Below are positions 1,758 to 41,560 of a stretch of 64,000 nucleotides of DNA, one piece after another. A program made the position numbers and the translations under genes. This DNA is from an uncultured SAR86 cluster bacterium (GTDB lineage Bacteria; Pseudomonadota; Gammaproteobacteria; Magnimaribacterales; D2472). Location: NCBI GenBank assembly GCA_902608115.1, contig CACLMT010000003.1:40302-104301 (forward strand), given 5' to 3'. The number at the start of each line of letters is the position of its first letter. The first letter of the stretch is position 1. The notes beneath the pieces are model-generated. The model did not search any database and was not told the DNA's origin. It worked only from the letters and a program-made list of their open reading frames with translations.

Positions 1758-1759
1758 AA

Positions 1760-2812
1760 TTACTTTTGAATATGCTCTATAACTCTTTTCGCTCCATATC
1801 CATCCACTAAATCAGCAGATACCTTGGAAGCTGCAATCAAGTTTCTTGCATTAGCAAAAAAAGCTATTGCACTTTCGAAATTATGACCATCGCTAAACTC
1901 TTGGTCTATTACAATTGAACCTTTAGATTGATGTAATGCTATTGCCCCAGGCTTTTGATTTTCAGCGAGTACTACTGAAATTGAAGGAATTCCAAGACAG
2001 CACCTTTCCCAAGCAGAAGTTCCCACCGCACCAATTACAAGGTCTTGAGTTGCAAGAAGTTCAGCCATGTGCTGAACATCTACATAAATTTTAGTTTCCC
2101 AAGGCATTTTAGATAACTGTTCCTTAACTGAAGAAATATGAGGAGATGCTCCCCCTAAGAGAATTGAAATTTTAGCATCAATACTAATAGTGCAATTATT
2201 TAACCTCTGTAATATTTTAGTTGTAATATTTTTGGGGTCACTGCCACCCATGCTAATGAGAATATTTTTTAAATCTGTATTCTCTCTATATTGAAGAGAA
2301 GCAGATCTCATGTTAATAAACTCATCTCTAATTAAACAATAATCTAAACCTGTTAATATGTTAGATTTTTCAGGTACTAGATTTACATAATCAAGATTTG
2401 TCCTTCCTAAATTTTGATCCAATAAAACATCGCAATCATGCGCCCTATTTGCAAGATCATCAATAACCATTAATTTTTTATTTTTTGATTTTAGCTTTTG
2501 CTCCCAAAGGTAATCTATAGAGTAATGATCAACAATTAACCATTTAATATTTAATGAATCAACAATTTCTTTTGTTAATGCTGAGTCCTTTTCCCAATCA
2601 AAAGATTCATTGATAGGGGTTGGTAAAATAAATAATTCATGACCCATTGAGGTAACTTTAGAATGTAAACTCTCACTCAGCTCCCTTGATACAAAACAAG
2701 AATTTAAAGACTTTTTGCTTAACATGTCTGCAATGGTTAAGCACCGCATAAGATGGCCATGGCCTATTTCAGTGGAGGCATCCACTCTAAATGCATAACT
2801 AAACACAGTCAT
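1760..2812 (-). CDS. pseG: UDP-2,4-diacetamido-2,4,6-trideoxy-beta-L-altropyranose hydrolase (PseG)
   Basis: The 350-aa ORF has the N-terminal FRVDASTEIGHGHLMRCLTIADML signature of PseG, a GT-B-like fold, and a pseC-pseG-pseH-pseI context. Confidence 0.8.
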   Translation of the reverse strand: MTVFSYAFRVDASTEIGHGHLMRCLTIADMLSKKSLNSCFVSRELSESLHSKVTSMGHELFILPTPINESFDWEKDSALTKEIVDSLNIKWLIVDHYSIDYLWEQKLKSKNKKLMVIDDLANRAHDCDVLLDQNLGRTNLDYVNLVPEKSNILTGLDYCLIRDEFINMRSASLQYRENTDLKNILISMGGSDPKNITTKILQRLNNCTISIDAKISILLGGASPHISSVKEQLSKMPWETKIYVDVQHMAELLATQDLVIGAVGTSAWERCCLGIPSISVVLAENQKPGAIALHQSKGSIVIDQEFSDGHNFESAIAFFANARNLIAASKVSADLVDGYGAKRVIEHIQK

Positions 2813-2815
2813 GAA

Positions 2816-3979
2816 TTAAACAATAATTTTTTTAAGTGTATTAATTACGTGATCTTGTTCTTCTTGGGTTAAAGTTGGATAAATCGGAATACTTAATGCT
2901 TCCCGATGATAACCTTCAGATTCAAGGCAATAACCTGCTTCAAAGCCCATTTTTTCATAAAAGGGCTGTCTATAAACAGGTATATAATGAAGATTTACCA
3001 TTATCCCAAGATCACATAACTCATCATGAATTTGAGGTTGAGTCTTTGTAATTTTCTCTAAATCAAGTCTTATAATATAAAGATGGTAGCTTGAAAATGT
3101 ATCTGGGTGTTGCCATGGTGTTCGTAAAGGCAATGAATTAAGCTCCTGATTATATCGATCTGCAATCTTATGTCTTTGTTTGATAATTTCTTTAAGCCTC
3201 TTTATTTGACTAAGACCTAAGGATGCTGCTATATCAGTCATTCTGTAGTTATAACCTAAGCGTATTTGTTGATAATTCCATATTTCATTATCAGGTCTCT
3301 CTATCATTTCTTTGGGATTTGATGTAATACCATGACTCCGATGCTGGCGTAACTTATTTGCAAGAATAGAATCATTAGTTAATGCCATTCCACCCTCACC
3401 CGTAGTAATAATTTTTACAGGATGAAAACTAAATACAGTTATATCACTATAAAAACAACTTCCTACCGGCATGTTTTTATAGGTACCTCCTATTGCATGG
3501 GATGCATCCTCAATAATCTTAAAACCGTATTTTTTACTTAAAGATTTAATCTCTTTCATCTCACAAGATTGTCCACTTAAATGAACTGGAACTAGGATTT
3601 TTGGTAAATTTTTATTTTGTTCTGCTATTTCTAATTTCTTTTTTAACTTCTCCACGCTGATGTTATAAGTTTGTGGGTCAATATCAACAAAATCTATTTT
3701 TGCACCACAATAAAGCGCGCAGTTTGAAGTGGCTACAAAAGTATTAGGGCAAGTCCATAGCCAGTCACCTGGTCCTAAATCAAGCGCCATACATGCAATA
3801 TGCAATGCTGATGTTGCACTATTAACTGCCACAGCATGCTTTGCACCAGTATACTCACATGTCACTTTTTCAAAAGATGGAACCACCGGTCCTTGAGTCA
3901 ATAAATCAGAGTTTAAAACGTCAACAACAGCAGCAACATCATCCTTTGTTATTTCTTGCCTTCCATATTTAATTTTCAT
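2816..3979 (-). CDS. pseC: PLP-dependent sugar aminotransferase, PseC-like (DegT/DnrJ/EryC1 family)
   Basis: The 387-aa ORF contains KYGRQEI...LLTQGP...NSATSALH...FVDID and SFHPVK (the PLP lysine), which is the PseC pattern. Confidence 0.85.
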   Translation of the reverse strand: MKIKYGRQEITKDDVAAVVDVLNSDLLTQGPVVPSFEKVTCEYTGAKHAVAVNSATSALHIACMALDLGPGDWLWTCPNTFVATSNCALYCGAKIDFVDIDPQTYNISVEKLKKKLEIAEQNKNLPKILVPVHLSGQSCEMKEIKSLSKKYGFKIIEDASHAIGGTYKNMPVGSCFYSDITVFSFHPVKIITTGEGGMALTNDSILANKLRQHRSHGITSNPKEMIERPDNEIWNYQQIRLGYNYRMTDIAASLGLSQIKRLKEIIKQRHKIADRYNQELNSLPLRTPWQHPDTFSSYHLYIIRLDLEKITKTQPQIHDELCDLGIMVNLHYIPVYRQPFYEKMGFEAGYCLESEGYHREALSIPIYPTLTQEEQDHVINTLKKIIV

Positions 3980-3986
3980 TACTATC

Positions 3987-4829
3987 TTAAACCTCGGTTG
4001 AATGCTCTATGGGAAGTATCCGTCCGTGGTATTGCCCCATTTCATATGCATTATTTAGAATTAATAAATTATCATTAGTTACTATTTCTGTATTTTCTCT
4101 ATATTTTAAAGAAGCTCCTGTATATGTTTCATAATCAGTACAGGGTATCCAGCAATCTACTTTAAAATCAGATATTGCCTCAAGATTAATTTGAGATGAG
4201 CAGCTTTTTAGCAACATTTCATATGGGTTTAAACCATCATCTTTACCTAATTTGGGTTGAGCATAAAAATGGCCATAAGATTTTGGTTTCATAAGATAAT
4301 CACAGCCGACTAGAATTGCTTTTTTAAAACCTAAGCTTATTGCAAGTCCAATAGCTGCATATAAACCGCCAGCTAGATAACTAAATTCCGAACATATATC
4401 TAAGTAATTTGAATGAGGATCTCTTTTCCCAAAATGATGGAGATAATGAGTATTCTTTAATGGTGCACCTAACATATTTGTAAAACTAGTAAAAAGATTT
4501 AATTCTGGAAATTTTGCAATCTCAGATCTAAATAAATTACCCATAATATTCTTTTCATATTTTTGTTTATAAGGGTTTTTGAAATAATGATAAAACGAAA
4601 AAGGTTCTGGTAATGTATAACAACAAGTATCAAGAAGATAAAAATCTTTATGCAAAACTAGATGATTAATCCCAATGGTTGGATAATTAGTAAAATGTGA
4701 AAAGTCTATGCTTTTCAAGGAAGCTCCATTTCCAAAAATATAACAAGTTTGATCGATGAAACTATTCTTAAAAAGAAAGTTTCTTCTGAACACAGGCTCT
4801 AATGCTTTATGAAGCAAATTATTCTTCAT
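3987..4829 (-). CDS. Cst-II-like (GT42 / DUF115-like) putative nonulosonic-acid (sialyl/pseudaminyl) transferase
   Basis: In this 280-aa ORF, CYIFGNGASLKSIDFSHF...IGINH parallels Cst-II IIAGNGPSLKEIDYSRL...FRCNQ. YLAGGLYAAIGLAISLGFKKAILVGCDYL parallels ITSGVYMCAVAIALGYKEIYLSGIDFY. The Cst-II sequences are recalled. The gene is embedded between the acetamidino genes and pseC. Confidence 0.55.
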   Translation of the reverse strand: MKNNLLHKALEPVFRRNFLFKNSFIDQTCYIFGNGASLKSIDFSHFTNYPTIGINHLVLHKDFYLLDTCCYTLPEPFSFYHYFKNPYKQKYEKNIMGNLFRSEIAKFPELNLFTSFTNMLGAPLKNTHYLHHFGKRDPHSNYLDICSEFSYLAGGLYAAIGLAISLGFKKAILVGCDYLMKPKSYGHFYAQPKLGKDDGLNPYEMLLKSCSSQINLEAISDFKVDCWIPCTDYETYTGASLKYRENTEIVTNDNLLILNNAYEMGQYHGRILPIEHSTEV

Positions 4830-4844
4830 GATTTGTGAGTTTAG

Positions 4845-5495
4845 CTAAATATTTAAAAAATTTTTTAACATCTGTAAACCTATTTTTCCGCTTTTTTCTG
4901 GATGAAATTGGCAACCTATAACATTCTCAGATTGAATAACTGCCGGAATAAAATTATCTCCATACAAACAACCAGCAATTAAGTGTTTAGAATCTTCTGG
5001 CTGAGCCATGTAAGAATGAACAAAATATAGGGCAGAATCTTCTTTGGTGTCTTCCAAAAGAGTTCCCTTCCAACTAACTCCTTCTTCTTTGGGTTTAACT
5101 AAATTGTTCCAACCAATATGTGGAATTTTTAATTTACTACCATCTTTAGCATGAGAAGGAACAGCTGTAACTTTACCTGATATTAAACCTAAACCGTCTG
5201 TTAAACCAAATTCTTCGCTCTCATCAAGCAAAAACTGCATCCCCAAACATATTCCTAGCAAAGGTGTACCTTTAGAAGTTAAGTCATGAATTAAAGAAAT
5301 GAAATCTCTTTTATCTAATTCAGCCATCCCATCCGCAAATGCACCAACACCTGGTAAAACCACCCTATCAGATTGAAATATTTCTTCAGGGTCTCCAGTA
5401 ACTTTTACCAATGCATCGTTATATTCTAAACCTCTCCTTACACTTAAGAGGTTCCCTACACCATAATCTATGACTGTAACAGTTTTAAGCGTCAT
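4845..5495 (-). CDS. HisH-like glutamine amidotransferase subunit (WbuY-type, sugar acetamidino formation)
   Basis: The 216-aa ORF has VIDYGVGNL, GICLGMQ (catalytic Cys) and FHPEKS. It is paired with a HisF-like gene (11-nt overlap) inside a polysaccharide locus, not a his operon. Confidence 0.8.
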   Translation of the reverse strand: MTLKTVTVIDYGVGNLLSVRRGLEYNDALVKVTGDPEEIFQSDRVVLPGVGAFADGMAELDKRDFISLIHDLTSKGTPLLGICLGMQFLLDESEEFGLTDGLGLISGKVTAVPSHAKDGSKLKIPHIGWNNLVKPKEEGVSWKGTLLEDTKEDSALYFVHSYMAQPEDSKHLIAGCLYGDNFIPAVIQSENVIGCQFHPEKSGKIGLQMLKNFLNI

Positions 5496-6258
5496 ATTTT
5501 CTTACACCTATATCTGCTTTATTTGCCTCTTCTCTGATTAAATTAATTGTTGATCGCTCATAATGCAAAATATCAGCCATCGCAATTGCATCTGCTCCAC
5601 CTTCTTCAATTGCAAATCTAATATGCTCCTCAGACCCCATACCACCACTAGCTATAACCGGAATATTAACTGCATCGGTTATTTTTTTGATTAGATCAAT
5701 ATCAAAACCTTTTCTCGTACCCTCATAATCTATAGAAGTTAGTAAGATTTCTCCGGCACCTTGCTCCACGCCTTCTTTTGCCCAATCTACGACGTCTATT
5801 CCTGTTTTTTCTCTTCCAGAATCTGTGTAAACTTCCCACATAGTATCAGACTGTTTTTTAGCCTCGATTGATAAAACCATACATTGAGAGCCAAATCTCC
5901 TGGAAACTTCATTTATGAGGCTTGGTCTTTGAACTGCAGCAGTATTAATTGCCACTTTATCTGCTCCAGCTCTTAATAACTCTCTTACATCCTCAATGTT
6001 TCGAATTCCGCCTCCGACAGTTAAAGGGACAAAAACATTTTCTGCAGTTCTAGAAACTATTTCTGGTAATTTGCTCCTACCATATAAGCTTGCAACGATA
6101 TCAATATATATTAATTCATCAGCGCCTTGCTCATAATACTTTTTAGCATGCTCTTGTGGGTCTCCAATAACCCTTAGCCCCTCTAGATGAATTCCTTTAA
6201 TAAGATTTGGTCCTTTAATATCAAGCCTCGCTATTAATCGAACTTTCTTATGCTTCAT
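5485..6258 (-). CDS. HisF-like cyclase subunit (WbuZ-type acetamidino modification protein)
   Basis: The 257-aa ORF has RLDIKG, ADELIYIDI, TVGGGIR and ASGG, the TIM-barrel HisF motifs. Its context is the amidotransferase trio. Confidence 0.8.
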   Translation of the reverse strand: MKHKKVRLIARLDIKGPNLIKGIHLEGLRVIGDPQEHAKKYYEQGADELIYIDIVASLYGRSKLPEIVSRTAENVFVPLTVGGGIRNIEDVRELLRAGADKVAINTAAVQRPSLINEVSRRFGSQCMVLSIEAKKQSDTMWEVYTDSGREKTGIDVVDWAKEGVEQGAGEILLTSIDYEGTRKGFDIDLIKKITDAVNIPVIASGGMGSEEHIRFAIEEGGADAIAMADILHYERSTINLIREEANKADIGVRKYDA

Positions 6259-6265
6259 TTTTTTC

Positions 6266-7489
6266 TTAATCTAATCTTTTTTGATCATGCCAAACTGCTC
6301 TTTTTAAATTCCACTCATCTCCTTCCTTCTCCCAAAGATGAGGAGAGCGAAATTTATCAACAGTTTCATGGAACTCATCTTCAGTTAAAGAAATATATTC
6401 CAAAAATTCCTTAAAATATTTCTTTGGAAACTCTTCATCAAATTTCTTAACTAACTGCGCCCCTTCTTCTCTTGTAATTTTGTTATTTCTAATTTCTTGT
6501 GCAGCATCATAAGTTGCTCTACCAATACCAAATTTTACAAGTGTGGTGTAGTAATGAAACATATCTATACGGTCATCTATGCTGCTATATTTAGAATAAG
6601 TTCCTTCTGTTCTCTCAGTATTAGATTGAAATCCAGTATGCTCAGTAGCATAGTAGTAACATTCCTGAGGGTCCCATTTAAGGTAATAACCAAGATAATG
6701 AACCTCTACATTCTTTGATTCAAGATAATCTGCACTGGGAGGAATATAGGGTGCAAAATCATTTAAAGTAAAGTCAGTTTCCTCCAAGATATCTCTTATC
6801 TTCTTACCACCAAGAACAATATCAAGAGGATCACTAATCGAGAAAAACTTCCTATCCATTGTAGGAATATAATTATCATCTACATTATTTCCATATTCAG
6901 CTTGATTCTCACCATACATAACTAACTCAACACCAAACTTTGCTGCCATAGATGGTCCAATAATCCTCTGTCCAACAATAAAAGGCTGGAAAGGATGTAA
7001 AAGATTAATAAATGCTTGCTTAGTTAAATATCTATGAAGTCGTCCATTAGGTGTAAGCAACATGTTATCTAAGCCGCCCACATGAATCCAATTCTCAAAA
7101 TTCTTCCATCCAATTTCAGTATACTTATGAGGCGCCCAAGTTACCGTAAGAGGATTCATACCATATTTATATTTCAGTATATGAGATGTATACGCGCTAT
7201 CTTTACCTCCACTTCCAGGAATTACAATGTCATAACTTCCATCATGTTTCCTATACTTCTCACAGAGTTCAGCAAGGGTATCCTCCCTATCTTTCCAATT
7301 AATAGAATTCGCTTTAGTTTCCTGATAATGACAAGCAGCACAAACTCCATTATTGTCAAAACCTATGGTTGATTTTTTTTCATCTTTTGAATGCTTGAAT
7401 TCAACTGTAGAGCTTGGTCGCTGATTGGAGATTACACAGCGTTTGCAAAAAATAACCTCTGAAGGCAATCCAAAGAATGTATCTGTCAT
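6266..7489 (-). CDS. N-acetyl sugar amidotransferase (PP-loop family; WbuX/PseA-like)
   Basis: The 407-aa ORF has an N-terminal Cys-rich segment (CKRCV...CAACHY) and a PP-loop-like SGGKDS motif (PGSGGKDSAY). It lies immediately upstream of the HisF/HisH-like pair, like Cj1316c-1315c-1314c as recalled. Confidence 0.75.
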   Translation of the reverse strand: MTDTFFGLPSEVIFCKRCVISNQRPSSTVEFKHSKDEKKSTIGFDNNGVCAACHYQETKANSINWKDREDTLAELCEKYRKHDGSYDIVIPGSGGKDSAYTSHILKYKYGMNPLTVTWAPHKYTEIGWKNFENWIHVGGLDNMLLTPNGRLHRYLTKQAFINLLHPFQPFIVGQRIIGPSMAAKFGVELVMYGENQAEYGNNVDDNYIPTMDRKFFSISDPLDIVLGGKKIRDILEETDFTLNDFAPYIPPSADYLESKNVEVHYLGYYLKWDPQECYYYATEHTGFQSNTERTEGTYSKYSSIDDRIDMFHYYTTLVKFGIGRATYDAAQEIRNNKITREEGAQLVKKFDEEFPKKYFKEFLEYISLTEDEFHETVDKFRSPHLWEKEGDEWNLKRAVWHDQKRLD

Positions 7490-7595
7490 TTTATAGCTCC
7501 TTAAAAAAATACATTATACGTTTTTAAAATCTCTTAAAAATAATTTATTTCTTAAACAAATTTATTGCTGAAATAATTCTTAAGGCAAATCGATT

Positions 7596-8726
7596 TTAAT
7601 TAAGATCAACAAAAAATTTCTGCTTTGGCATATTCCAAAATTCTTTGTTATTAATTATTTCATAGAACTTCTGCGCACTATTACCATCACCAAAAATCAT
7701 AGACGGTTCATAATTTTTACCTTCAACACCTTGTATTGCTTGAGAAATATCATCTAAATTAAAGTCTGAGTCAGTAATACTGGGTAAAGATACTCTATTA
7801 TTCTGTCTAGAGCCTAAATTAATAGTTGGGACCCCAAAATGAGGGGCTTCTCTAACACCAGCACTCGAATTACCAATCATAAAGTCAGCATTTTGAAGCA
7901 ATTGCAAAAAATGCTCGAATCTCATTGATGGAAAAACTCTAAAATTTTTATGATTAGATAAGTTTTCATATGCATCAAAAATTATCTCTGAGCCATGATC
8001 ATTATTTGGATAGATTACAACATAGTTCTTCTTAGATTGAATTAATCCGTCAATTAGAATCTGAATATGATTTTTTAAATTATCCAATTCTGTTGTTACA
8101 GGATGAAAAATTGCGACTGCATAATTATCATAATCAATCTCATATCGTTTTTTTACTTCTTCTAATGAGGGTAAAGAACTTGAATTCATAATATCAATAT
8201 CAGGGGAGCCAATTACATATGTAGATTCTGTTCTCTCTCCTAACTGCAACAGCCTTTTTTGAGCATCTTCATTTGCTACAAAATGAGCATGAGATAATTT
8301 TGTTACAGCATGGCGAATAAGCTCATCTACTGTTCCAGAAACCTCTCCGCCCTCTATATGACCTGTTAAGACATTATTTAATGCTCCAACGGTTGCACCA
8401 GCTAATGCCTCTACTCGATCACCATGAACAATAATTAAATCTGGATTAATTTCTCTAACATAGTCTGATAAACCTAAAATTGATTTAGCTAATACATGAT
8501 CCATTCCATCTGAAACATTCTGATTTATAAATTTATGAATATTCTGAAAATTAGCTTTTTCAACTTCTTCACATGTATAACCATATTTAGCTAGCATATG
8601 CATGCCAGTAACAAAAACATGAAGCTGAAAGTTAATGTCGTCTTGAATAATTTTCATCAAAGACTTTAACTTTCCAAAATCAGCTCTAGTACCTGTAACA
8701 AAAATTATCTTTTTTTGATTTTGCAT
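7596..8726 (-). CDS. neuC: Hydrolysing UDP-N-acetylglucosamine 2-epimerase (NeuC/LegG family)
   Basis: The 376-aa ORF has IIFVTGTRADFGKLKSLM...VTGMHM...HGDR.E, the NeuC pattern. It lies adjacent to the neuB and neuA homologs. Confidence 0.8.
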   Translation of the reverse strand: MQNQKKIIFVTGTRADFGKLKSLMKIIQDDINFQLHVFVTGMHMLAKYGYTCEEVEKANFQNIHKFINQNVSDGMDHVLAKSILGLSDYVREINPDLIIVHGDRVEALAGATVGALNNVLTGHIEGGEVSGTVDELIRHAVTKLSHAHFVANEDAQKRLLQLGERTESTYVIGSPDIDIMNSSSLPSLEEVKKRYEIDYDNYAVAIFHPVTTELDNLKNHIQILIDGLIQSKKNYVVIYPNNDHGSEIIFDAYENLSNHKNFRVFPSMRFEHFLQLLQNADFMIGNSSAGVREAPHFGVPTINLGSRQNNRVSLPSITDSDFNLDDISQAIQGVEGKNYEPSMIFGDGNSAQKFYEIINNKEFWNMPKQKFFVDLN

Positions 8727-8727
8727 A

Positions 8728-9768
8728 TCACTTCTCTACATGAGATTTTGTCAATTGTTCGCCAGCTTTTATTGGGGCAAGGATCGGTTTACCAATTAAA
8801 TTTTCATAATCAGCTGCAGAGTAATCTCCTTCGCCTGGTCTACGCACCCATATATTTTCTTCACTTAATAACTCACCCCCTTCAATATCTTTTATTGCAA
8901 CGACTGAAGCAAAAGCAAACGCTATAGTTGCCTCCTCTTCGGGTACTGGGTGTTTGTCACCACCTCTTTCGGTAAAAAGGATTTTTGATCCATGAATTAA
9001 TTCAGATAAGGAATTAGGATCCATAGAGCATACAATATCTGGTCCCGGTCTATCTAATGAATCTGTAAAATGTCTCTCAAGGATAGATGCTCCTAAGGCG
9101 ACAGCGCCAAAGCATGCCAAATTGTCTGTTGTATGATCAGACAATCCAACCACTGCATCAGGAAACTCAGATTGTAAAACTTTCATTGCTCCCAGCCTTA
9201 CTAACTCTGGAGGAGTTGGATATATGTTTGTCGTGTGTAATAAAGCATATGGAATACTGAATTTACGTAAAATTTCAACTGCTGGTCTAATTGAATCAAT
9301 TGAATTCATTCCAGTGCTTAAAATAATTGGTTTACCTGATCTTGCAATATGTTTTATTAAGGGGTAATTATTGCATTCTCCGGAACCAATTTTATATGCA
9401 GGTACATTAAATCTTTCTAATCTATCAGCTGCGGCTCGTGAAAAAGGAGTGCTAATAAAAATACAATTTCTTGATTTAATGTGCTCCATTAAAACATGCT
9501 CTTCCTCTTCATTAAGAGCGCATCTAGCCATAATTTCATATATAGAAACATCCGCGTTACCAGGAACAACTTCTTTTGCCTCAGCTGACATCTCGTCCTC
9601 AACAATATGAGTTTGATGCTTTATAATTTCAGCTCCTGCTTCAATTGCTGCATCTGCCATTGAGATTGCTAGATCTAAACTACCCTCATGATTAATACCA
9701 ATCTCAGCTATTACAACAGGAGGATGATTGTCTCCTATTATTCTGTTATTAATTTTTATTTCAGGCAT
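8728..9768 (-). CDS. neuB: NeuB/LegI-family nonulosonic acid synthase (second NulO synthase in the locus)
   Basis: The 346-aa ORF has [30 protein letters not shown] and a C-terminal SAF domain. It is clearly a separate paralog from the PseI-type ORF at 185-1249. Confidence 0.8.
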
Positions 9769-9770
9769 TT

Positions 9771-10466
9771 TTACTTCCCCATTAAAGCTTCTGCTCTCTT
9801 TAAATCTTCTTTCTCATCTATATCAATACTATCATCTTCAGTCATTACAAAAGGCATGCTTCCATTAGAAGGAAAACCTTTTCTATCAAGAAAATCTTCA
9901 ATTGAAAAAATATATATAGCACCATTAGGTATATACACATCTTGAAGGTCTTGCCTTCGAGCATTTGATAGCTTTTCTTCAAAGAGCGATTCCAACCGTC
10001 CAGAATTTGAAATAATGAATGACTTAAATGGAGATTTCCTCATATGCATAACACTGATAAGTGATTCTTCTTTATTCTCAAGTAAGCTCATTATGGCTTT
10101 ATCAATGTGTTTAGAATTACGTAAAGGTGAAGTTGGCTGAAGATAAACAATAAAATTATTCTTATGATTAATATTTTTTGGAAGAGAATCAATAAAATGA
10201 TTAACCACGTCTATTGCTGAAGATTCATCGGTAGCAAATTCTACTGGTCTTAAGAGTGTTTTTGCTTTTAATGAATCAGCCAATGATAGCACTCTTAAAT
10301 CATCTGAAGACACCCATACCTCACCTATCAAAGAAGAATGAAGGGCTGCATGAATAGTATGTTGTACCAAAGGCTTACCATTAAGATTGAGCATGTTTTT
10401 GTCTATTAAACCTTTTGAACCCTTTCTTGCAGGAATAAGGCCTATAAAGCTTGATCTAGAAGTCAT
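9771..10466 (-). CDS. neuA: Acylneuraminate (nonulosonate) cytidylyltransferase, NeuA/LegF/PseF family
   Basis: The 231-aa ORF starts with the [15 protein letters not shown] motif of CMP-NulO synthetases. Its start overlaps the upstream ABC gene stop as ATGA. Confidence 0.8.
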
Positions 10467-12256
10467 GTGATAGTTTTGTTTTGATTGATTATTTCTTCAT
10501 ATGATCCAACTCGAAGAATTTTACCCTGATCTAATTCAATAATATGTGTACAACTTTCTAACGTAGTTAATCTATGAGCTACAATAATTAAGGTTAATTC
10601 TTGACCAAGGTTTCTGATTGCATCCATTACTACTTTTTCTGTTTCGTTATCTAGAGAGCTAGTTGCTTCATCAAAAACTATAATATTTGCCTTTTTATAC
10701 AATGCTCTAGCAATACCAATTCGCTGTCTTTGCCCGCCACTTAGTCTAACCCCTCTTTCACCAACTACTTCCTGATATCCATTTGGTCTATTGTCAATAA
10801 AATCTGAAATCATTGCTTTTTTAGCCGCATCTTTCACTCTAGACATATCAATTTTTTCTGGCATAACTCCAAATGCAATATTTTCTGCTATTGATGTATC
10901 AGCTAAGAAAATACTTTGAGGGACATGGGCTACTGTCTGACGCCACGCTCTAATTAAACTATCATCAATCTTTTGGTTATCTACTATTAGTTCTCCATTC
11001 GTTGGTTCTAGCAAACCCATAATTAAATCAAGTGTTGTGCTCTTACCACTTCCAGTGCTTCCTATTAACCCAATTCTTGAACCCTTTTTAATTTCTAAAG
11101 AAATATTATCTAAAACCAATGGGGTAATTTCACTATAACGAAAACTTAAATTACGAACTGAGAACGAATCTTTAATCTCTAATGGTTGGGGCTCATTTTC
11201 ATAATAGTACTGAGGAAAAGGTTGATCAAGGAGTTCTACAACATCATTGAGGGCTGCATGACTACCAGCTACTAATGACCAATTACCATAAATCTGTTGC
11301 ATTAATGGAAGTAATCTTTGAGCTCCTAGTGCTAACATACCCAATAGGGGAAGAGCTGCTGTAACACCTCCTGATCTATTAGTTAAAGCTAATACAAAAA
11401 TCGCTATCAATACCATTCCCAATGATTCCATTGCGTATCTGGGTGCCTGATTCATAAATCTATTTTCACCATTTGCTTTCATTAAAAGAAGAATCGCTTT
11501 TCTATAAATGCCAGTATAAATACGCTGAGTAGCATCTAAAATTACATCTCTAATTGCACCTAAACCTTCCTGCAAGGCTTTAACTACTTGAGTTTGTTGA
11601 GATGCAATTGATCTGCTATTTAACTCAAATCTTTTACTAGTTAAAAATGCAATTACGACATATGCAGACCCAAAGCTTAGACCCGCAACAATGGTAACTA
11701 ATGGATCAACAATCAACATTGTCATCATAATTGACATAAATAAAAAAGAAGACGTAATAATGGAAGTAACAGCTAACAAAACACCAGTCGCAGCGGTAAC
11801 CTTTTGAGTTATCCCGCTAATAATTTCACTGCTACTCCTCTCTATATGAACTTTAAATGGCTGATACAAAGTTCTTTCATAAACTTCAATACTTAAATCT
11901 GCTCCAGTCGCATTAGAGAGCTTTATGCTAACCCACAATAATAATAACCTTAAAGATCCAGCAATAATTGCCGCTAATCCAAAAGCAACAGTCAGTGGCA
12001 ATATAAGCTGATCACCGGAATTAATACCAAAAAAAATAATAAAATCTGCAAGCCATGGTGATTGAAAAACTTGCTCCGGCTGAGTAAGAATTCCAATAAA
12101 TGGAAGTACGGCACCTAAACTTGCAACTTCGGCGACAGAAGCAACCAATGTTAATATCAATAAGAAAATAAAATGTATTTTTCTTCTCTTACCAATATGG
12201 GTCCAAAGATCTTTAAATAACTTTGTTAATGAATTGTGGTTAATATTTTTGTTCAT
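10463..12256 (-). CDS. ABC exporter, fused permease/ATPase (MsbA-type half transporter)
   Basis: The 597-aa ORF has six predicted N-terminal TM helices, Walker A GSTGSGKST, the signature LSGGQRQR and Walker B IIVFDEATS. Confidence 0.85.
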   Translation of the reverse strand: MNKNINHNSLTKLFKDLWTHIGKRRKIHFIFLLILTLVASVAEVASLGAVLPFIGILTQPEQVFQSPWLADFIIFFGINSGDQLILPLTVAFGLAAIIAGSLRLLLLWVSIKLSNATGADLSIEVYERTLYQPFKVHIERSSSEIISGITQKVTAATGVLLAVTSIITSSFLFMSIMMTMLIVDPLVTIVAGLSFGSAYVVIAFLTSKRFELNSRSIASQQTQVVKALQEGLGAIRDVILDATQRIYTGIYRKAILLLMKANGENRFMNQAPRYAMESLGMVLIAIFVLALTNRSGGVTAALPLLGMLALGAQRLLPLMQQIYGNWSLVAGSHAALNDVVELLDQPFPQYYYENEPQPLEIKDSFSVRNLSFRYSEITPLVLDNISLEIKKGSRIGLIGSTGSGKSTTLDLIMGLLEPTNGELIVDNQKIDDSLIRAWRQTVAHVPQSIFLADTSIAENIAFGVMPEKIDMSRVKDAAKKAMISDFIDNRPNGYQEVVGERGVRLSGGQRQRIGIARALYKKANIIVFDEATSSLDNETEKVVMDAIRNLGQELTLIIVAHRLTTLESCTHIIELDQGKILRVGSYEEIINQNKTIT

Positions 12257-13293
12257 TATGATCTTATCTTAAAATTCCAAGCTGAACTGCACATCTCTTC
12301 TACCCCCTTTGTTGCAATCCATTTAAATGCTTGGGCGGATCGATGCACATCTGCATAACAGCTAGCCACATCTCCAGGTCTTCTAGATGCAAATTTATAT
12401 GGGATCTTTACATTATTAACTTCTTCAAAGGTACGTATTAACTCTAAAACGCTACAACCTTTCCCAGTACCAATATTAAAAATATGAAATCCTGCTTTGG
12501 CAATTGAAGAAAGCTCAATATCTTCATGATTAATTACTTTCAACCCTATATAATTTAATGCTAATAGATGAGATTCTGATAAATCCATAATATGGACATA
12601 ATCTCTAACTCCAGTCCCATCAATTGTGTCGTAATCATTACCGTAAATATTAATATGTGGTAATTCTCCATTGGCTACATTTACAATATGCGGCATAAGA
12701 TTATTAGGTATGCCTCGAGGGTTTTCTCCAATTAGCCCACTTTCATGAGCTCCAACTGGATTAAAGTACCTAAGACAAACAATCTTCCATCCATCCTCTG
12801 CTTCTGAGATACTTCTAAGCTCTTCTTCAATTTTTAGCTTTGTTTCTGCGTATGGATTATTGCTCGATAATGGATGCTTCTCATCTATTGGCAAGTACCT
12901 TGGAATTCCATATACAGTTGCACTACTGCTATAAATTAAATTTTTAACTCCAAAAGATCTCATCACAGAAAGCAAGCATGATGTACCATTGCAGTTATTC
13001 TTAAAGTACTCATTCGGCTTAAGAATTGATTCAGATACTGATTTTAAAGCAGCCAAATGAATCACTGCATCAAAACTATGTTTTGTAAAAATTCTGTTTA
13101 ACTCGGTTTCATCAGATATATTACTTTGATAAAAAGTAATTTTCCTACCCATTAAATTCTCTAAATCATCAATAGACTCTGAGCTGCTATTGGAGAAATT
13201 ATCTATTATTACAACATCATGCCCACTATCTAGTAAAAGAAAAGCAATATGAATGCCGATATATCCAGCTCCGCCAGGTATTAAAAAATTCAT
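12256..13293 (-). CDS. galE: UDP-glucose/UDP-GlcNAc 4-epimerase (GalE family SDR)
   Basis: The 345-aa ORF has GGAGYIG, SSSATVYG and YAETK (YxxxK), and is GalE-like over its full length. Confidence 0.8.
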   Translation of the reverse strand: MNFLIPGGAGYIGIHIAFLLLDSGHDVVIIDNFSNSSSESIDDLENLMGRKITFYQSNISDETELNRIFTKHSFDAVIHLAALKSVSESILKPNEYFKNNCNGTSCLLSVMRSFGVKNLIYSSSATVYGIPRYLPIDEKHPLSSNNPYAETKLKIEEELRSISEAEDGWKIVCLRYFNPVGAHESGLIGENPRGIPNNLMPHIVNVANGELPHINIYGNDYDTIDGTGVRDYVHIMDLSESHLLALNYIGLKVINHEDIELSSIAKAGFHIFNIGTGKGCSVLELIRTFEEVNNVKIPYKFASRRPGDVASCYADVHRSAQAFKWIATKGVEEMCSSAWNFKIRS

Positions 13294-13336
13294 TTAATTA
13301 AGCTGTTTAAACTTGAGGTTATAGACTGAACTAAAA

Positions 13337-14245
13337 CTAATCTATCTTTCTAAACAAATAATGGTTTGTTAGGATAAAAAATATGCTGAGCATGAATCCT
13401 ATAAATGTTCCGGCTATACAAATCATTGACCTAACAGGCGCAGATTTCTTTTCAGGCACATAAGCTGAATCAAGAGGCCGTAGAAGATAGTCTTTACGAA
13501 CATTTGCAAGCATTTCAGTTTCAAGTTGAGATTGAATTAATGCGTTGATTGAATTTCTTATATCTGCAACCCTATATATATTAAGTTGATCATTCAAATA
13601 TGTCTTTGATCTTTGAGCCTCAGCAATATCCCTATTTCTTTCAATATTGTTTAATTCATTAATAATCAAATCTAAAAAAGACTTTGCAAAATATGGTGAT
13701 TGGTGTTCTACGCTGATTGCCAAGAACCCTGTATCAATATCAATAAAAACATCTACTATTGAAAGAAATTTTTTATACACTTCATTTTCAGAAGGTAAAT
13801 TAACTAACCATTTTTGATCAGTTGTGTCATAAATTTCCTCATCAAAATTTATAGATTTGGATGCTGGATCGTATCCCTTCAAAGCCATTAATGCCGGAAG
13901 CACCCCATCAAAAGATGAAATATGCTTTACAAAATCTCTAGATCTTATGGTGTGCTTTGCAAGATCTGCTTTTTCATCTGTACCTCCACCTGATCCTAGG
14001 TTCACTCCAGCCAAAGCCGCTATACTTCCAAATTGAGAATTAGTGGATACTGTGCTTCCACTTGAACCTGCCACTTTTAAAACTACATCTGATTTATATA
14101 TATTTGGCAAGGACAATGAATAGAAAACAGAGCTTACAGCAAAAATAAATGAGATGATTATAATTAATCTCTTCTTTTCCCATACGATTGAGAATAATTC
14201 ACTAAGATTTATTTCATCATTGCTAGAGGCGGCATTATTTGACAT
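13337..14245 (-). CDS. wzz: Polysaccharide chain-length determinant (Wzz/PCP family)
   Basis: The 302-aa ORF has the N-terminal Wzz motif (INLSELFSIVWEKKRLIIIISF..., TM1), a periplasmic coiled region and a C-terminal TM (ICIAGTFIGFMLSIFFIL). Confidence 0.7.
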   Translation of the reverse strand: MSNNAASSNDEINLSELFSIVWEKKRLIIIISFIFAVSSVFYSLSLPNIYKSDVVLKVAGSSGSTVSTNSQFGSIAALAGVNLGSGGGTDEKADLAKHTIRSRDFVKHISSFDGVLPALMALKGYDPASKSINFDEEIYDTTDQKWLVNLPSENEVYKKFLSIVDVFIDIDTGFLAISVEHQSPYFAKSFLDLIINELNNIERNRDIAEAQRSKTYLNDQLNIYRVADIRNSINALIQSQLETEMLANVRKDYLLRPLDSAYVPEKKSAPVRSMICIAGTFIGFMLSIFFILTNHYLFRKID

Positions 14246-14300: not shown

Positions 14301-14387
14301 TGGTGCCCAGAGCCGGACTTGAACCGGCACGAAGTTGCCTTCGAGGGATTTTAAGTCCCTTGTGTCTACCAATTCCACCACCTGGGC
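14301..14387 (-). tRNA. tRNA-Leu (anticodon UAA), class II with long variable arm, CCA encoded
   Basis: The reverse complement is GCCCAGGTGGTGGAATTGGTAGACACAAGGGACTTAAAATCCCTCGAAGGCAACTTCGTGCCGGTTCAAGTCCGGCTCTGGGCACCA. It has anticodon loop CTTAAAA and T-loop GGTTCAAGTCC, and is close to E. coli leuZ as recalled. Confidence 0.9.
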
Positions 14388-14411
14388 AAAATATAAAGTT
14401 TAAATCCTCCA

Positions 14412-14485
14412 TGGAGGCTGAAGCCGGAATCGAACCGGCGTAAACGGCTTTGCAGGCCGCTGCATAACCACTCTGCCATCCAGCC
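14412..14485 (-). tRNA. tRNA-Cys (anticodon GCA), CCA encoded
   Basis: The reverse complement is GGCTGGATGGCAGAGTGGTTATGCAGCGGCCTGCAAAGCCGTTTACGCCGGTTCGATTCCGGCTTCAGCCTCCA. It has anticodon loop CTGCAAA and T-loop GGTTCGATTCC. Confidence 0.9.
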
Positions 14486-15028: not shown

Positions 15029-15532
15029 TTATTTCTTTGAGATAATACTAGTGTCTACCTGAATGGTATGAGCTCTATTTAATAAAGAAAAGAGGATTTC
15101 AACCCTTTGCTCAGATATTGTCGCTGTAATGATTGCTTCCTGATCTTTTAAAGGCCCAGTAAGAATTTCTATAAATTCTCCGATTCTGTAAGACTCTTTG
15201 TTTGGATTATTAATGGATTCAAGCTCCACTTCTTTAAAAGACTGAATGACTTGATTATCAAGAACAGGATACTTGTCTCCAAAACGGATGATCTTAATCA
15301 CTCCTCGAGTAGATCTCACTGGTTTTATCTCTAGGTTGGGTTCTGATTTAAGAAATGCATAACCAGGAAACATAGCTTGTTTTTTTATTACTGTTTTGGT
15401 CTTGGATAATAGACTGGAATGTAAAACTGGAAAATAGGGTTCATATCCCTGATTTAAAAGATTTTCCTCTGCTCTTTTTCCTTCCTTGGGCTTGATATTT
15501 AAAACAAGCCAACCAAATTGTAATAATGACAT
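15029..15532 (-). CDS. RfaH-like NusG paralog (NGN + KOW) transcription antiterminator
   Basis: The 167-aa ORF has an NGN-like N-terminus (WLVLNIKPKEGKRAEENLLNQGYEPYFPV...FPGYAFL) and a KOW-like C-terminus (IGEFIEILTGPLKDQEAIITA...RVEILFSLLNR). It is not in the secE-nusG-rplK context and sits at the head of a polysaccharide locus. Confidence 0.7.
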   Translation of the reverse strand: MSLLQFGWLVLNIKPKEGKRAEENLLNQGYEPYFPVLHSSLLSKTKTVIKKQAMFPGYAFLKSEPNLEIKPVRSTRGVIKIIRFGDKYPVLDNQVIQSFKEVELESINNPNKESYRIGEFIEILTGPLKDQEAIITATISEQRVEILFSLLNRAHTIQVDTSIISKK

Positions 15533-39153: not shown

Positions 39154-40200
39154 ATGGATTACCAAACTGACAATACCCGAATAGTTGAGAGGTTAGATAT
39201 AATCCCTCCTATCAATCTTTTAGAAGAAATGCCTATTTCTGAAAAAATTTCTAGCTTAGTTTACGGTACTAGAAATGAGATTAGTAGCATTTTACATGGT
39301 AAAGACGATAGATTATTAGTTGTATGCGGACCTTGCTCAATACACAATCCCGATTCTGCAATTGAGTATGCAACAAAACTAAAAGAGCAATATGAGTTGC
39401 TAAATAAAGATTTGCTGATAGTTATGAGAGTTTATTTTGAAAAACCTCGTACGACAGTTGGTTGGAAAGGTTTAATTAATGATCCAGATTTAAATGGAAC
39501 ATTTGATATAAATAAGGGTATCCGTTTATCTAGATCTCTTCTGTTAGAATTTGGCAAGATGGGTTTACCGTGTGGTACAGAGTTTTTAGATTTAATTAGT
39601 CCTCAATATATTGCCGATTTAATTTCTTGGGGAGCTATTGGAGCAAGAACTGCTGAGAGCCAAACCCATAGAGAGCTAGCATCAGGAATGTCGTGCCCCA
39701 TAGGAATTAAAAATGGAACAAACGGAGCTCTAAAACCTGCAATTGATGGCATCCAAGCAGCCAATCATTCTCATGTATTTTTTTCTACAACTAAAGAAGG
39801 AAATGTATCAGTTTTTCGAACATCAGGGAATTCTGATTCACACATCATCTTGAGAGGTGGCAAAAAACCAAATTTTTCAAAAAATGATATAGAGAAAACT
39901 CTAACAGCACTTACAGAAGCAGATGTAAATAAATCAATCATGGTCGATGCTAGTCATGGAAACAGTCAAAAACAATTTAAAAAACAAATAGAGGTTATAA
40001 ATGATTTAGCCGAACAAATTTCTGGGGGAAATGGCTCTTTAAGAGGTTTAATGCTGGAAAGCAATTTAGTAGAAGGAAACCAAAGTATTTCAGATAATTT
40101 AACGTATGGGCAAAGTATTACCGATGCATGTATGAATTGGTCAGATACACTAGAATGCCTTCAAGTTGTTAGTGAGGCTGTTAAAAAAAGGCGGGGTTAA
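39154..40200 (+). CDS. 3-deoxy-7-phosphoheptulonate (DAHP) synthase, class I (AroF/G/H type)
   Basis: The 348-aa ORF has DDRLLVVCGPCSIH, KPRTTVGWKGL and IGARTAESQ.HRE motifs. The isozyme cannot be assigned. Confidence 0.9.
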   Translation: MDYQTDNTRIVERLDIIPPINLLEEMPISEKISSLVYGTRNEISSILHGKDDRLLVVCGPCSIHNPDSAIEYATKLKEQYELLNKDLLIVMRVYFEKPRTTVGWKGLINDPDLNGTFDINKGIRLSRSLLLEFGKMGLPCGTEFLDLISPQYIADLISWGAIGARTAESQTHRELASGMSCPIGIKNGTNGALKPAIDGIQAANHSHVFFSTTKEGNVSVFRTSGNSDSHIILRGGKKPNFSKNDIEKTLTALTEADVNKSIMVDASHGNSQKQFKKQIEVINDLAEQISGGNGSLRGLMLESNLVEGNQSISDNLTYGQSITDACMNWSDTLECLQVVSEAVKKRRG

Positions 40201-41013
40201 TTGGATAAAAAAAACTTTACTTTTTCGATTCAAGAAGCTGAAACATTAGGCGTTGAGTGCGCTACTGTACTGGCTGCTACAAAAAAAATAGATACGCTAT
40301 CTTTATCAGCTCAAGAAATATCTAATCATGTAGAAAATACTCTAAGTTTTTTAAGCGCTACTCAAGTCCTAAATAATGTTAAACGCTTGATTGACTTAAA
40401 ATTAATTAGATCAAAGACATCAATATCTAAAAAAAGTAACCACAAACCCAATATCTATAAATTAAAACTTCCAAGCAATAATAATACTGGTAAACGTATT
40501 CTTGAAAGCTCATGGATACCTTCTGATCATGCCTATGAAGTATTGAATATGGGCGGAGTGAATAAAAATTTTATCAACAACAAGATAGATGAATTTAAAA
40601 TGTATTGGCTAGAGAAGAATCAAATGCGTGATAATTGGAATGTGCTATTTGTTGATTTTATTAGGCGTGAATGGATAAAAGAAAATTCTTCCAATAAAGG
40701 CATGCCATTTTGTATAAATAATGAATGGATGCCTACATCTGATGCCTTTGATGTTCTAGAATTAGCAAATGTATCAAAAAATGATGCGTTAAAACATTTG
40801 AAGGAGTTTATACTCTACTGGAAGGAGAATGGAACAGCCTTAAAATCTTGGAATTCAAAATTTGTAGATTTTGTTAAACGAAAAGAACTTATAGGATCGT
40901 ACGAAGAAATTAATGACAAAAAAACTAAAAGACATAATGAACCCGGAGAATTTTCCAAAAAATTCAATGAAAGAACTCAAGATGAATCATGGGCAGAAAA
41001 TTTCGAGCTCTGA
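40201..41013 (+). CDS. Protein with a putative N-terminal winged-helix and two tandem DnaT-C-terminal-like (ssDNA-binding) domains; phage O/DnaT-like replication protein
   Basis: The 270-aa ORF starts at a TTG directly after the DAHP synthase stop. It has an internal duplication: WIPSDHAYEVLNMGGVNKNF..IDEFKMYWLEKNQMRDNWNVLFVDFIRREW and WMPTSDAFDVLELANVSKND..LKEFILYWKENGTALKSWNSKFVDFVKRKE. Both follow the E. coli DnaT pattern DWQPDADFIRLAALWGV...[24 protein letters not shown] (recalled). Confidence 0.5.
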   Translation: MDKKNFTFSIQEAETLGVECATVLAATKKIDTLSLSAQEISNHVENTLSFLSATQVLNNVKRLIDLKLIRSKTSISKKSNHKPNIYKLKLPSNNNTGKRILESSWIPSDHAYEVLNMGGVNKNFINNKIDEFKMYWLEKNQMRDNWNVLFVDFIRREWIKENSSNKGMPFCINNEWMPTSDAFDVLELANVSKNDALKHLKEFILYWKENGTALKSWNSKFVDFVKRKELIGSYEEINDKKTKRHNEPGEFSKKFNERTQDESWAENFEL

Positions 41014-41560
41014 ACGTAAAGCTTTTATCAAAGCTATTGATAATCTCTTCTTAAAACTAGAGCTATCTTATCATTATCAATTCTACAAAGTTTTTGGCAC
41101 AGACAAGAGATTAAAAGAAGCAAAAAGACTTTGGGCAGAAAGCTTAAAAAGATATTCTCCAACCTGTATTTATTCAGCAACAGAAACTGTTGTTAAAACA
41201 AACGACTACTTGCCAACATTAACTGAAGTTATTAAAGCTTGTGGAGAGTCAATTGATGTCTTAAACATCCCATCTACCCAAGAAGCATTTATTGAAGCAC
41301 AGAAATCATCTGCTCCTAGAAAAGAATATAATTGGACTACTCCAATTATTTACTGGGCCGCAAGAGAGGTTGGATGGGATATTATCAACTCTTCCAATAA
41401 CCCAAACACTTTCAAACTATTCTCAAAGGTATATGCACGCCTTGCTAATAAAATGAATGAAGGTCAGTCCTTTGATATCTCTGTTGAAGAACCTAATGCA
41501 GAAGTAAAGCCATTAGATAAAGAGCTACTTAAAAACTTAAGAAAAAAGCATAACTTATAG
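40913..41560 (+). CDS. Lambda replication protein P-like protein (candidate helicase-loader family, no Walker motifs)
   Basis: This is the maximal ORF (215 aa); in-frame ATGs at 40937, 40967 and 40982 are alternative starts. It is collinear with lambda P as recalled: KRLWAESL / RRQWVLAF, DYLPTLTEVIKACGE / PFLPSPGQFVAWCRE, LNIPSTQEAF / GLPNVSELV, YNWTTPIIYWAA / YPWKSNAHYWLV, KMNEGQSF / RINRGEAI. Confidence 0.5.
   Translation: MTKKLKDIMNPENFPKNSMKELKMNHGQKISSSERKAFIKAIDNLFLKLELSYHYQFYKVFGTDKRLKEAKRLWAESLKRYSPTCIYSATETVVKTNDYLPTLTEVIKACGESIDVLNIPSTQEAFIEAQKSSAPRKEYNWTTPIIYWAAREVGWDIINSSNNPNTFKLFSKVYARLANKMNEGQSFDISVEEPNAEVKPLDKELLKNLRKKHNL

Follow-up and report, generated by a model that had tools for sequence, protein, structure and literature searches.

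SAR86 bacteria are widespread, largely uncultured marine bacteria, which the NCBI taxonomy places in Gammaproteobacteria incertae sedis. The stretch of DNA described here, referred to below as the window, comprises 64,000 nucleotides (nt) from an uncultured member of this cluster (assembly GCA_902608115.1, contig CACLMT010000003.1, positions 40,302 to 104,301). It contains two overlapping open reading frames (ORFs), ORF1 and ORF2, which an earlier inspection of the letters alone (the sequence-only reading) had singled out as a phage-type replication pair embedded in housekeeping genes. We refer to them as dopC and dopE, after the proposed helicase-loading pair DopC/DopE, to whose family they belong. 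SAR86 is a lineage newly added to this known system, the architecture of which was itself published in 2017.

The pair is preceded by its upstream operon partner, the aroG-like gene for DAHP synthase (39154–40200, plus strand), recognized by a PF00793 (DAHP_synth_1) match on the identical protein in the related locus L001. The TAA stop codon of this gene occupies 40198–40200 and is directly abutted by the TTG start of dopC at 40201. The dopC-like gene (40201–41013, plus strand) encodes a protein of 270 amino acids (aa), and the dopE-like gene (40913–41560, plus strand), whose product is a putative DnaB loader of the lambda P family, encodes 215 aa, or 192 aa if the alternative ATG at 40982 is used. 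These coordinates, the TAA/TTG abutment and an overlap of 32–101 nt had been given exactly by the sequence-only reading. No terminator-like site was found between the start of aroG and the end of dopE (39154–41560), and since the start of dopC also abuts the aroG stop, dopC and dopE appear to be co-transcribed with aroG. The GC content is uniform, at 0.32 for the pair and 0.32–0.35 for its surroundings.

Relatives of ORF1 were recovered from 194 species genomes in a scan of one genome per species. The best 80 loci, all SAR86-type and with 40–73% identity, were examined; no named Cellvibrionales genome was among them. For the counts of overlaps, start codons and aroG, 84 loci were used. In 82 of these 84 loci, which are all those with a contig long enough to show it, aroG lies ahead of dopC; some relatives have an 8-nt overlap of the two genes.

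Architecture of the two proteins and of their overlap

DopC is built around a repeated domain. Its residues 105–158 (repeat 1; 40513–40674) and 176–229 (repeat 2; 40726–40887) share 20 identities over 57 positions, with a local alignment score of 120 against 25 ± 5 for shuffled sequences (z = 18.6), and by this comparison the internal duplication noticed in the sequence-only reading is genuine. In Pfam, ORF1 matches the DnaT DNA-binding domain family (PF17948, E 1.7e-31) over two segments, the better of which covers residues 172–228. Repeat 1, in addition to its own Pfam stretch, contains residues that are invariant among relatives (W105, P107, E131, F132, W136, N145 and W146). The assignment of both units to the C-terminal domain of Escherichia coli DnaT, also anticipated, is borne out at the level of structure: the best match of the AlphaFold2 model of DopC in a Foldseek search of the PDB is the complex of DnaT84-153 with single-stranded DNA (ssDNA), 4ou6 (probability 0.97, TM-target 0.56). 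A profile of DopC relatives (positions 168–218) aligns with the DnaT C-terminal-domain chains 4ou6, 4ou7 and 2ru8 over residues 6–60, at E 0.17–0.48. Two or three domains of this type are the dominant conserved feature of DopC. No counterpart of the DnaT N-terminal domain or of its acidic PriB-binding linker was detected, the N-terminal 100 residues of DopC giving no DnaT match. Since only the C-terminal domain of DnaT aligns, and is present twice, DopC is not a DnaT orthologue and only shares a domain with it.

The N-terminal domain of DopC (residues 1–76; 40201–40428) is helical and winged-helix-like in the AlphaFold2 model, with predicted helices at residues 10–16, 18–27, 37–47 and 53–65. 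The model is confident over this part (~10–70) and over the two three-helix units (predicted local distance difference test, pLDDT, 84–91); the linkers and the C-terminal tail are disordered, the tail having a pLDDT below 50. Foldseek searches with the N-domain returned weak matches to the winged-helix DNA-binding domains of Fur/PerR (probability 0.3–0.6), and the viral matches of the whole model, to phage helix-turn-helix (HTH), replication and 'replisome organizer' proteins, were likewise weak. No Pfam HTH family matched the N-terminus at E ≤ 1, and the PHROG 8540 'O-like' profile gave a marginal match to it (E 0.045).

The C-terminal tail of DopC (residues 247–270; 40939–41010) carries the motif EPGEF..F.ER..D.SWA, in which P248, G249, F255, R258, D261, S263 and W264 are invariant or almost so. 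The D.SWA tail also occurs in homologues that are not followed by a P-like gene, namely those of two Mu-like viral contigs (L085 and L086) and the proteins P0254, P0255 and P0258.

DopE belongs to the family of the lambda replication protein P. Residues 41–188 of ORF2 match the Pfam family Phage_lambda_P (PF06992, E 3.8e-9) with 37.0 bits where the gathering score is 26, PHROGs places ORF2 in phrog_109, 'P-like helicase loader' (E 1.8e-16), and an hhalign comparison of a profile of DopE relatives with lambda P is collinear over residues 26–149 and 24–156, respectively (E 1.2e-3), at about 16% identity to lambda P itself. The lambda-P-like character and collinearity proposed from the sequence are recovered by these profiles, as is the absence of an ATPase signature: no AAA+ or IstB family of Pfam or NCBIfam matched DopE, and its 215 aa contain no GxxxxGK[ST] Walker A motif. 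A weak similarity to the SPP1 protein G39P over residues ~64–124 (PF11417, E 0.025; PDB profile, E 0.013) lies below the curated threshold.

Lambda P consists of four domains, of which the C-terminal lasso helix binds the docking helix–linker helix (DH-LH) element of DnaB, probably as the first stable contact (PMC12661323). With the domain limits of that study, four parts of DopE can be delineated. Residues 1–35 form a poorly constrained N-terminal segment encoded within the dopC overlap. Residues 36–117 (41018–41263), which align to lambda P ~35–119, make up a helical region resembling domain II, in which I42, L45, F46, E50, Y53, H54, Q56, F57, W74, A75, P101 and T102, among others, are invariant. 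The central region (residues 118–190; 41264–41482) resembles domain III, its invariant residues including P120, E128, P135, R136, W141, P144, Y147, G154 and W155. The C-terminal tail (residues 191–215; 41483–41557) contains a conserved helix of the form L..L...LRKKH.[LI], predicted at residues 203–212 in a low-confidence model, with L205, L209, R210 and K212 invariant. By analogy with lambda P, we infer that this tail is a candidate DnaB-contacting 'lasso'.

The two genes overlap out of frame by 101 nt (40913–41013) when dopE is read from the ATG at 40913, and by 32 nt from the ATG at 40982, the last of the further in-frame ATGs. An ATG that gives an overlap of 98–101 nt is present in 77 of the 84 loci, and the other seven, which form a subclade with a short DopE, have instead an ATG with an overlap of 74 nt. 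The ATG at 40982 is the one chosen by gene callers, yet it is not conserved among loci; no clear Shine-Dalgarno sequence precedes either ATG. Conservation of the ATG at 40913 is partly forced by DopC because it is built from the codons for N238 and D239, and the 'invariant' G27 of DopE is in the same way a by-product of W264 and A265 of DopC, so that the conservation of the DopE N-terminus largely reflects constraint on the DopC tail. The long overlap, which is ~100 nt in most SAR86 loci and 74 nt in the subclade with a short DopE, probably couples the expression of the two genes. As for dopC itself, the TTG is the first start codon of its open frame in most loci.

Kinship and chromosomal residence of the pair

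The sequence-only reading had described the pair as an orphan, a term that no longer applies, because the same arrangement has been proposed as DopC/DopE. Brezellec et al. (Genome Biol Evol 2017, 9:1561) searched for genes specific to those Cellvibrionales and Oceanospirillales in which dciA and dnaC/dnaI are both missing, and found a resident lambda-P-like gene, dopE, in Cellvibrionales and some Oceanospirillales (PMC5509034). Its companion dopC, located upstream, encodes an N-terminal HTH, related to lambda O and assigned to HTH_36 (PF13730) by HHpred, and a DnaT C-terminal-type domain. In that work the dopC/dopE locus is not an origin; DopE is proposed to bring DnaB to oriC, and DopC to help DopE or to take part in fork reactivation (PMC5509034). 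SAR86 is not among the lineages listed there, and no paper joining SAR86 with DopE or DciA was found in the literature searched. The link once suggested between such a pair and a streamlined genome does not hold either, since DopC/DopE is described in Cellvibrionales and Oceanospirillales with large genomes.

A profile search of 1.84 billion representative proteins recovered 727 related DnaT-repeat clusters. Tandem DnaT domains are therefore widespread outside the enteric bacteria, from which alone, as the sequence-only reading had noted, DnaT is usually described. One of these clusters, P0259 (E 1e-64), has a member from a genome bin of Porticoccaceae (Cellvibrionales). The corresponding locus, L110, is a metagenome contig whose assignment to Porticoccaceae is made only via the cluster-mate HAD10309.1, at ≥ 90% identity. 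At 717–2553 it encodes a 414-aa DopC with three repeats and a D.SWA-type tail (...LSDRSWAS), overlapped by 89 nt by a 226-aa PF06992 protein, and a divergently transcribed radA adjoins dopC. The DopE proteins of the window and of L110 share 32% identity over 152 aa in an ungapped BLASTP alignment (E 5e-31), and the DopC proteins share 36% identity over the repeats (E 3e-31). This homology, together with the common gene order and overlap, places the SAR86 pair in the DopC/DopE family.

The SAR86 pair has in common with the published system two adjacent genes on the same strand, with an HTH-like and DnaT-domain protein upstream of a PF06992 protein, a non-prophage context congruent with the host, and a lack of iterons and DnaA boxes. 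The long overlap is shared with the Porticoccaceae-type pair (89 nt, against 101 nt in the window). The two differ in position, the Porticoccaceae-type pair being adjacent to radA and the SAR86 pair lying between aroG and an RND pump gene, and in repeat number, with two DnaT repeats in the window and three in the Porticoccaceae-type pair as well as in some forms from SAR86. The published HTH_36/lambda-O-like signal was not reproduced for SAR86 DopC.

Several better known systems offer partial parallels. As in lambda O/P, the gene for a DNA-binding organizer is followed by a helicase-loader gene whose end overlaps it, and DopE, like lambda P, is a member of the corresponding Pfam family, is collinear with residues 24–156 and lacks an ATPase motif. 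In contrast, DopC has DnaT-type domains where lambda O has its C-terminal domain, and the SAR86 pair has neither an origin inside the gene nor a phage context. The arrangement also resembles E. coli dnaT-dnaC, in which a DnaT-domain gene lies directly upstream of a phage-derived DnaB loader gene, and DopC shares with DnaT the C-terminal three-helix ssDNA-binding domain (PF17948; 4ou6). However, the SAR86 loader is P-type, whereas E. coli DnaC is AAA+, and the DopC domain occurs in tandem within one chain, accompanied by a winged-helix-like N-domain and a D.SWA tail instead of the other parts of DnaT. VdhL1 and VdhL2, the viral-derived helicase loaders of Vibrionaceae (PNAS 2024, PMC11087808), are likewise phage-derived, non-AAA+ loader candidates replacing dciA; the gene of a putative pre-primosomal partner accompanies them, and they are remotely linked to PF06992. 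They fail the PF06992 threshold and are sporadic, with repeated horizontal replacement, whereas the SAR86 pair passes it and is vertically inherited in one fixed slot. Finally, SPP1 G39P, the loader and inhibitor of the helicase G40P (PDB 1NO1), is small, helical and ATPase-free, as is DopE, and differs from it in length and overall architecture.

The SAR86 pair resides at a constant chromosomal position. The order rluB-scpB-scpA, then aroG-dopC-dopE-RND adaptor-RND pump-xseB-ispA-dxs, was observed in all 80 SAR86 species loci, to the extent that each contig covers it, and the identical order was found in further SAR86-type metagenome contigs. The neighbours rluB, scpB, scpA, DAHP synthase, RND pump, ispA and dxs could be named from Pfam matches tabulated for syntenic loci, which agrees with the earlier description of the flanks as core genes, with DAHP synthase upstream and the RND pump, ispA and dxs downstream. 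A fully syntenic SAR86-type locus is also carried by public genome bins that bear the names Methanobacteriota archaeon, Mesoflavibacter profundi and Chloroflexi bacterium (L010, L031; P0423), which points to mis-binned contigs in those assemblies.

Both genes are maintained by selection and appear to have been inherited with the chromosome. The dopC and dopE ORFs are intact in all loci, and against a relative of 95–97% identity the ratio of non-synonymous to synonymous substitutions (dN/dS) is 0.18–0.19 for dopC and 0.22–0.26 for dopE, compared with 0.085–0.17 for the neighbours. In the 46 complete loci, pairwise distances track those of the flanking genes (Spearman 0.73 for DopC and 0.66 for DopE; Mantel 0/999) and the distances of DopC and DopE correlate with each other (0.76), both proteins evolving ~1.3–1.4 times faster than the flanking genes.

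Signs of a phage origin in the surroundings were sought in 40 other ORFs spread over the window, taken from ~60 ORFs of ≥ 120 aa. Pfam scans of these 40 ORFs returned housekeeping families (for example uvrC, pgi, pyrF, rpsA, aroA, pheA, gyrA, pntAB, thiL, glyA, nrdR and nusB) or no match, and no integrase, repressor, terminase or structural phage gene, as the sequence-only reading had also noted. No match to DopC was obtained by tblastn against 50,697 phage genomes, and the same search with DopE gave one marginal match, to a Bordetella phage (E 3e-4). PADLOC identified no defence system in the pair, and NCBIfam gave no useful match. The dopC locus is without origin features: the pair contains no iterons, only two-copy chance repeats, and the DnaA box TTATNCACA is absent from it, occurring once in the whole window against 3.9 expected.

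The sequence-only reading had preferred a resident module to a decaying prophage and had named in advance the findings that would speak against it, namely a lack of significant profile matches to the DnaT and lambda P families, a sporadic distribution beside prophage genes in relatives, frameshifts and relaxed selection. Each of these was looked for; instead, both proteins gave significant matches to these families, the aroG-side position proved constant, no prophage genes accompanied the pair in the 80 SAR86 species loci, the ORFs were intact and the dN/dS values (0.18–0.26) indicated purifying selection.

Other features of the window lie apart from the pair. On the minus strand, 185–14245 holds a gene cluster for surface polysaccharide and nonulosonic acid, comprising two NeuB-family synthases, a DegT aminotransferase, a UDP-N-acetylglucosamine (UDP-GlcNAc) 2-epimerase, a HisF-like protein, an ATP-binding cassette (ABC) exporter, a dehydratase and Wzz, along with ORFs without a Pfam match at 1760–2812, 3987–4829 and 6266–7489. 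Adjacent genes for tRNA-Leu(TAA) and tRNA-Cys(GCA) on the minus strand (14301–14485) are the sole gathering-level Rfam RNA matches in the window, and a NusG/RfaH-like gene is located at 15029–15532.

A candidate route to DnaB and its alternatives

There is little doubt in our minds that the pair is a functional, resident DopC/DopE-family pair. That it acts as a DnaB loading system is a more guarded claim, for which we see somewhat better than even chances. As a whole, the account that we regard as probable is that of a SAR86 DopC/DopE, chromosomally resident and vertically inherited, in which dopE descends from a phage loader of the lambda P type. The pair is also inferred to replace DciA. In the 64-kb window, the sole part of the genome covered, no member of the DciA or DnaC families was found among the 40 ORFs scanned.

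A mechanism can be outlined by analogy with the better studied proteins. DopE would bind the host DnaB hexamer and hold its ring open as lambda P does, its C-terminal helix 'LRKKH.L' docking on the DH-LH element of DnaB and its helical core working like domains II–III of lambda P. The C-terminal domain of E. coli DnaT docks on PriA, forms filaments on lagging-strand ssDNA and so marks the loading site (PMC13377028), and the tandem DnaT-type domains of DopC may bind ssDNA like a short built-in filament of this kind. DopC would in this way mark the loading site at the DnaA-melted origin, at PriA-processed stalled forks, or at both, and its N-domain, its tail or both would recruit the DopE-DnaB complex or other partners.

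Several observations weigh against this loader account, and some of them concern the ties of the proteins to their models. In a PDB profile search, DopE relatives found no lambda P chain, only SPP1 G39P, and the AlphaFold2 model of DopE, built on 22 homologues, is unreliable (pLDDT 48). The comparison of DopC with lambda O by hhalign gave E 0.48, that is, no detectable similarity, and a lambda-O-like ancestry, suggested for ORF1, is not detectable here. The domain families do fit the role in replication restart or helicase loading that the sequence-only reading had proposed. The function of DopC/DopE was proposed in the original description (PMC5509034), and later papers still cite DopE only as a suggested or putative loader.

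The remaining contrary observations come from variant loci. Eight SAR86 loci (L054, L056, L059, L060, L065, L067, L076 (~10680–11102) and L035 (7214–7645)) encode a DopE of ~140 aa, which is without the ~70-aa segment equivalent to lambda P domain III (~118–186 of the window DopE) and keeps the domain-II-like helical region and the C-terminal LRKKH.I tail. One subclade, represented by independent single-cell or metagenome assemblies, accounts for seven of these loci, the eighth being L035. Another SAR86 lineage, represented by three independent assemblies, L095 (8001–8828; CP097968.1, a 1.0-Mb contig), L096 and L097, has the order aroG-dopC-RND adaptor; dopC and the pump gene are 17 nt apart, and the locus contains no DopE-like ORF. 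Both the truncation of DopE and its absence from the slot are awkward if DopE is an essential loader. Outside this slot, two DopC-like genes (L093, 6001–7152; L099, 6001–7053) encode an HTH-like N-terminus, three DnaT repeats and an LTD[RK]SW tail; each adjoins radA, in L099 within the block rpsF-rpsR-rplI-dnaB-alr-radA-X-ogt, where X is the DopC-like gene, and no P-like gene was found near either. Since DopC-like genes occur without an adjacent P-like gene, DopC may have a role independent of DopE. Repeat number also varies within the family: in addition to L110, a SAR86-type genome (L108, 8001–9537) has in the usual slot a 321-aa DopC with three repeats, followed by an overlapping P-like gene. 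Taken as leads, these variants suggest a broader family around DopC than was described in 2017, and a DopE that may be partly dispensable.

Related proteins are also found on mobile elements. The viral contigs L085 (7983–8507) and L086 (7989–8501) encode proteins of 170–174 aa with two DnaT domains and an LTD[RS]SWA tail and without an N-terminal HTH; their neighbours, judged by eye, resemble Mu GemA and Mor. On the chromosome of Cellvibrio sp. KY-GH-1 (L101, 8001–8801), a 266-aa protein with two DnaT repeats lies in an apparent integrative conjugative element that also carries genes for ParA, DUF2857, AcaB, TraI_2_C, a single-stranded DNA-binding protein (SSB), a topoisomerase and TraT. This Cellvibrio protein (P0463) was considered as the DopC of the organism and rejected because of its place on that element.

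The possibility that deserves most attention beside the loader account, and with which that account is compatible, is that the pair serves mainly in replication restart; we hold it as a tentative option. DopC, acting much as E. coli DnaT, would dock on PriA at abandoned forks or D-loops and occupy the lagging-strand ssDNA, with DopE as its means of recruiting DnaB. The arrangement would parallel the enterobacterial dnaT-dnaC operon. Such a role would fit the dominance of DnaT C-terminal-type domains in the conservation of DopC, as well as the DopC-like genes that in other bacteria lie beside radA, once in a dnaB-alr-radA block, without a P-like gene. It would also fit the tandem-DnaT proteins with the same tail in Mu-like viral contigs, as Mu replication uses the restart primosome. 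Further support is lent by the E. coli DnaT domain itself, which docks on PriA and forms filaments on lagging-strand ssDNA (PMC13377028), and the possibility was also raised by Brezellec et al. in 2017 (PMC5509034). Nevertheless, a loader would still be needed at the origin, and if dciA and dnaC are absent, as is reported for organisms with DopC/DopE, DopE must serve oriC too; moreover, the N-terminal domain and the acidic PriB-binding linker of DnaT are without a detectable counterpart in DopC.

An alternative that we think unlikely takes the variant loci at face value: DopC would be the indispensable core and DopE a reducible adaptor, of which only the short C-terminal DnaB-binding helix must stay, whether it comes from a full DopE, from a 140-aa form or as a part fused to DopC. 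The eight loci in which the domain-II-like region and the LRKKH.I tail persist in a shortened DopE argue for it, as do the three independent assemblies with aroG-dopC-MFP, MFP standing for the membrane fusion protein that is the RND adaptor, and no DopE-like ORF at the locus. The 269-aa DopC of this last lineage has no D.SWA tail; its end reads ...NFDFYIPSE..KNIVKNLRDKYKI. A hidden Markov model (HMM) of the DopE tail scores 7.6 bits on this end, a value reached by 20 of 5000 composition-matched shuffles, and at most 2.3 bits on ordinary DopC proteins, so that the protein may be a fusion of dopC with the 3′ end of dopE. Against this, the similarity is short and lysine-rich (p ~0.004, without multiple-test correction), and in most lineages purifying selection acts on full-length DopE. 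The corresponding reduction series within SAR86, from a DopE of ~215 aa to one of 140 aa and then to no dopE in the slot, with a DopC C-terminus resembling the DopE helix, seems improbable to us as well.

That the pair is kept as an anti-phage device, its P-like protein sequestering DnaB from the loaders of incoming phages, is an idea with a precedent in the speculation of Brezellec et al. that a loader, once domesticated, could put phages at a disadvantage in the competition for DnaB (PMC5509034). We give it very little credence: PADLOC found no match, the pair keeps a fixed, core-like place in the aroG operon and not in a variable defence island, and every SAR86 species genome locus that the scan recovered has it. 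Least credible of all is a decaying prophage remnant or recent mobile module without a cellular role, a reading prompted by the phage protein family of ORF2 and by the DnaT-domain tandems of viral contigs and of an integrative conjugative element, and contradicted by a chromosomal slot that is the same in all 80 SAR86 species loci, even where protein identity falls to 40%, ORFs intact everywhere under purifying selection, divergence that tracks the flanking genes, a GC content like that of the surroundings and the lack of a phage gene among the window ORFs scanned.

Meaning for SAR86 and for the DopC/DopE family

The loci assembled here define what is conserved in the system and provide material for its dissection. 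SAR86 supplies more than 80 natural sequence variants of DopC/DopE, and their conservation singles out the tandem DnaT domains and D.SWA tail of DopC, the LRKKH helix of DopE and the long overlap of the two genes. The variants in which DopE is truncated or lost are a ready-made dissection of the parts that are needed.

If the unlikely reduction of DopE to an adaptor were true, the minimal recruiting unit would be an ssDNA binder made of DnaT repeats together with a short DnaB-binding 'lasso' peptide. DopC, and not DopE, would then be the conserved core, and the unit would load or recruit the helicase as a single ATPase-free protein, a conceptual convergence with DciA. The proteins that lie beside radA and combine an HTH, three DnaT domains and a D.SWA tail would in that case represent an unrecognized DnaT-like restart factor outside the enteric bacteria.

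For SAR86 itself, every species locus recovered carries DopC/DopE in one fixed slot. The range of the proposed third type of bacterial helicase loader thereby grows well past the two orders of its first description.

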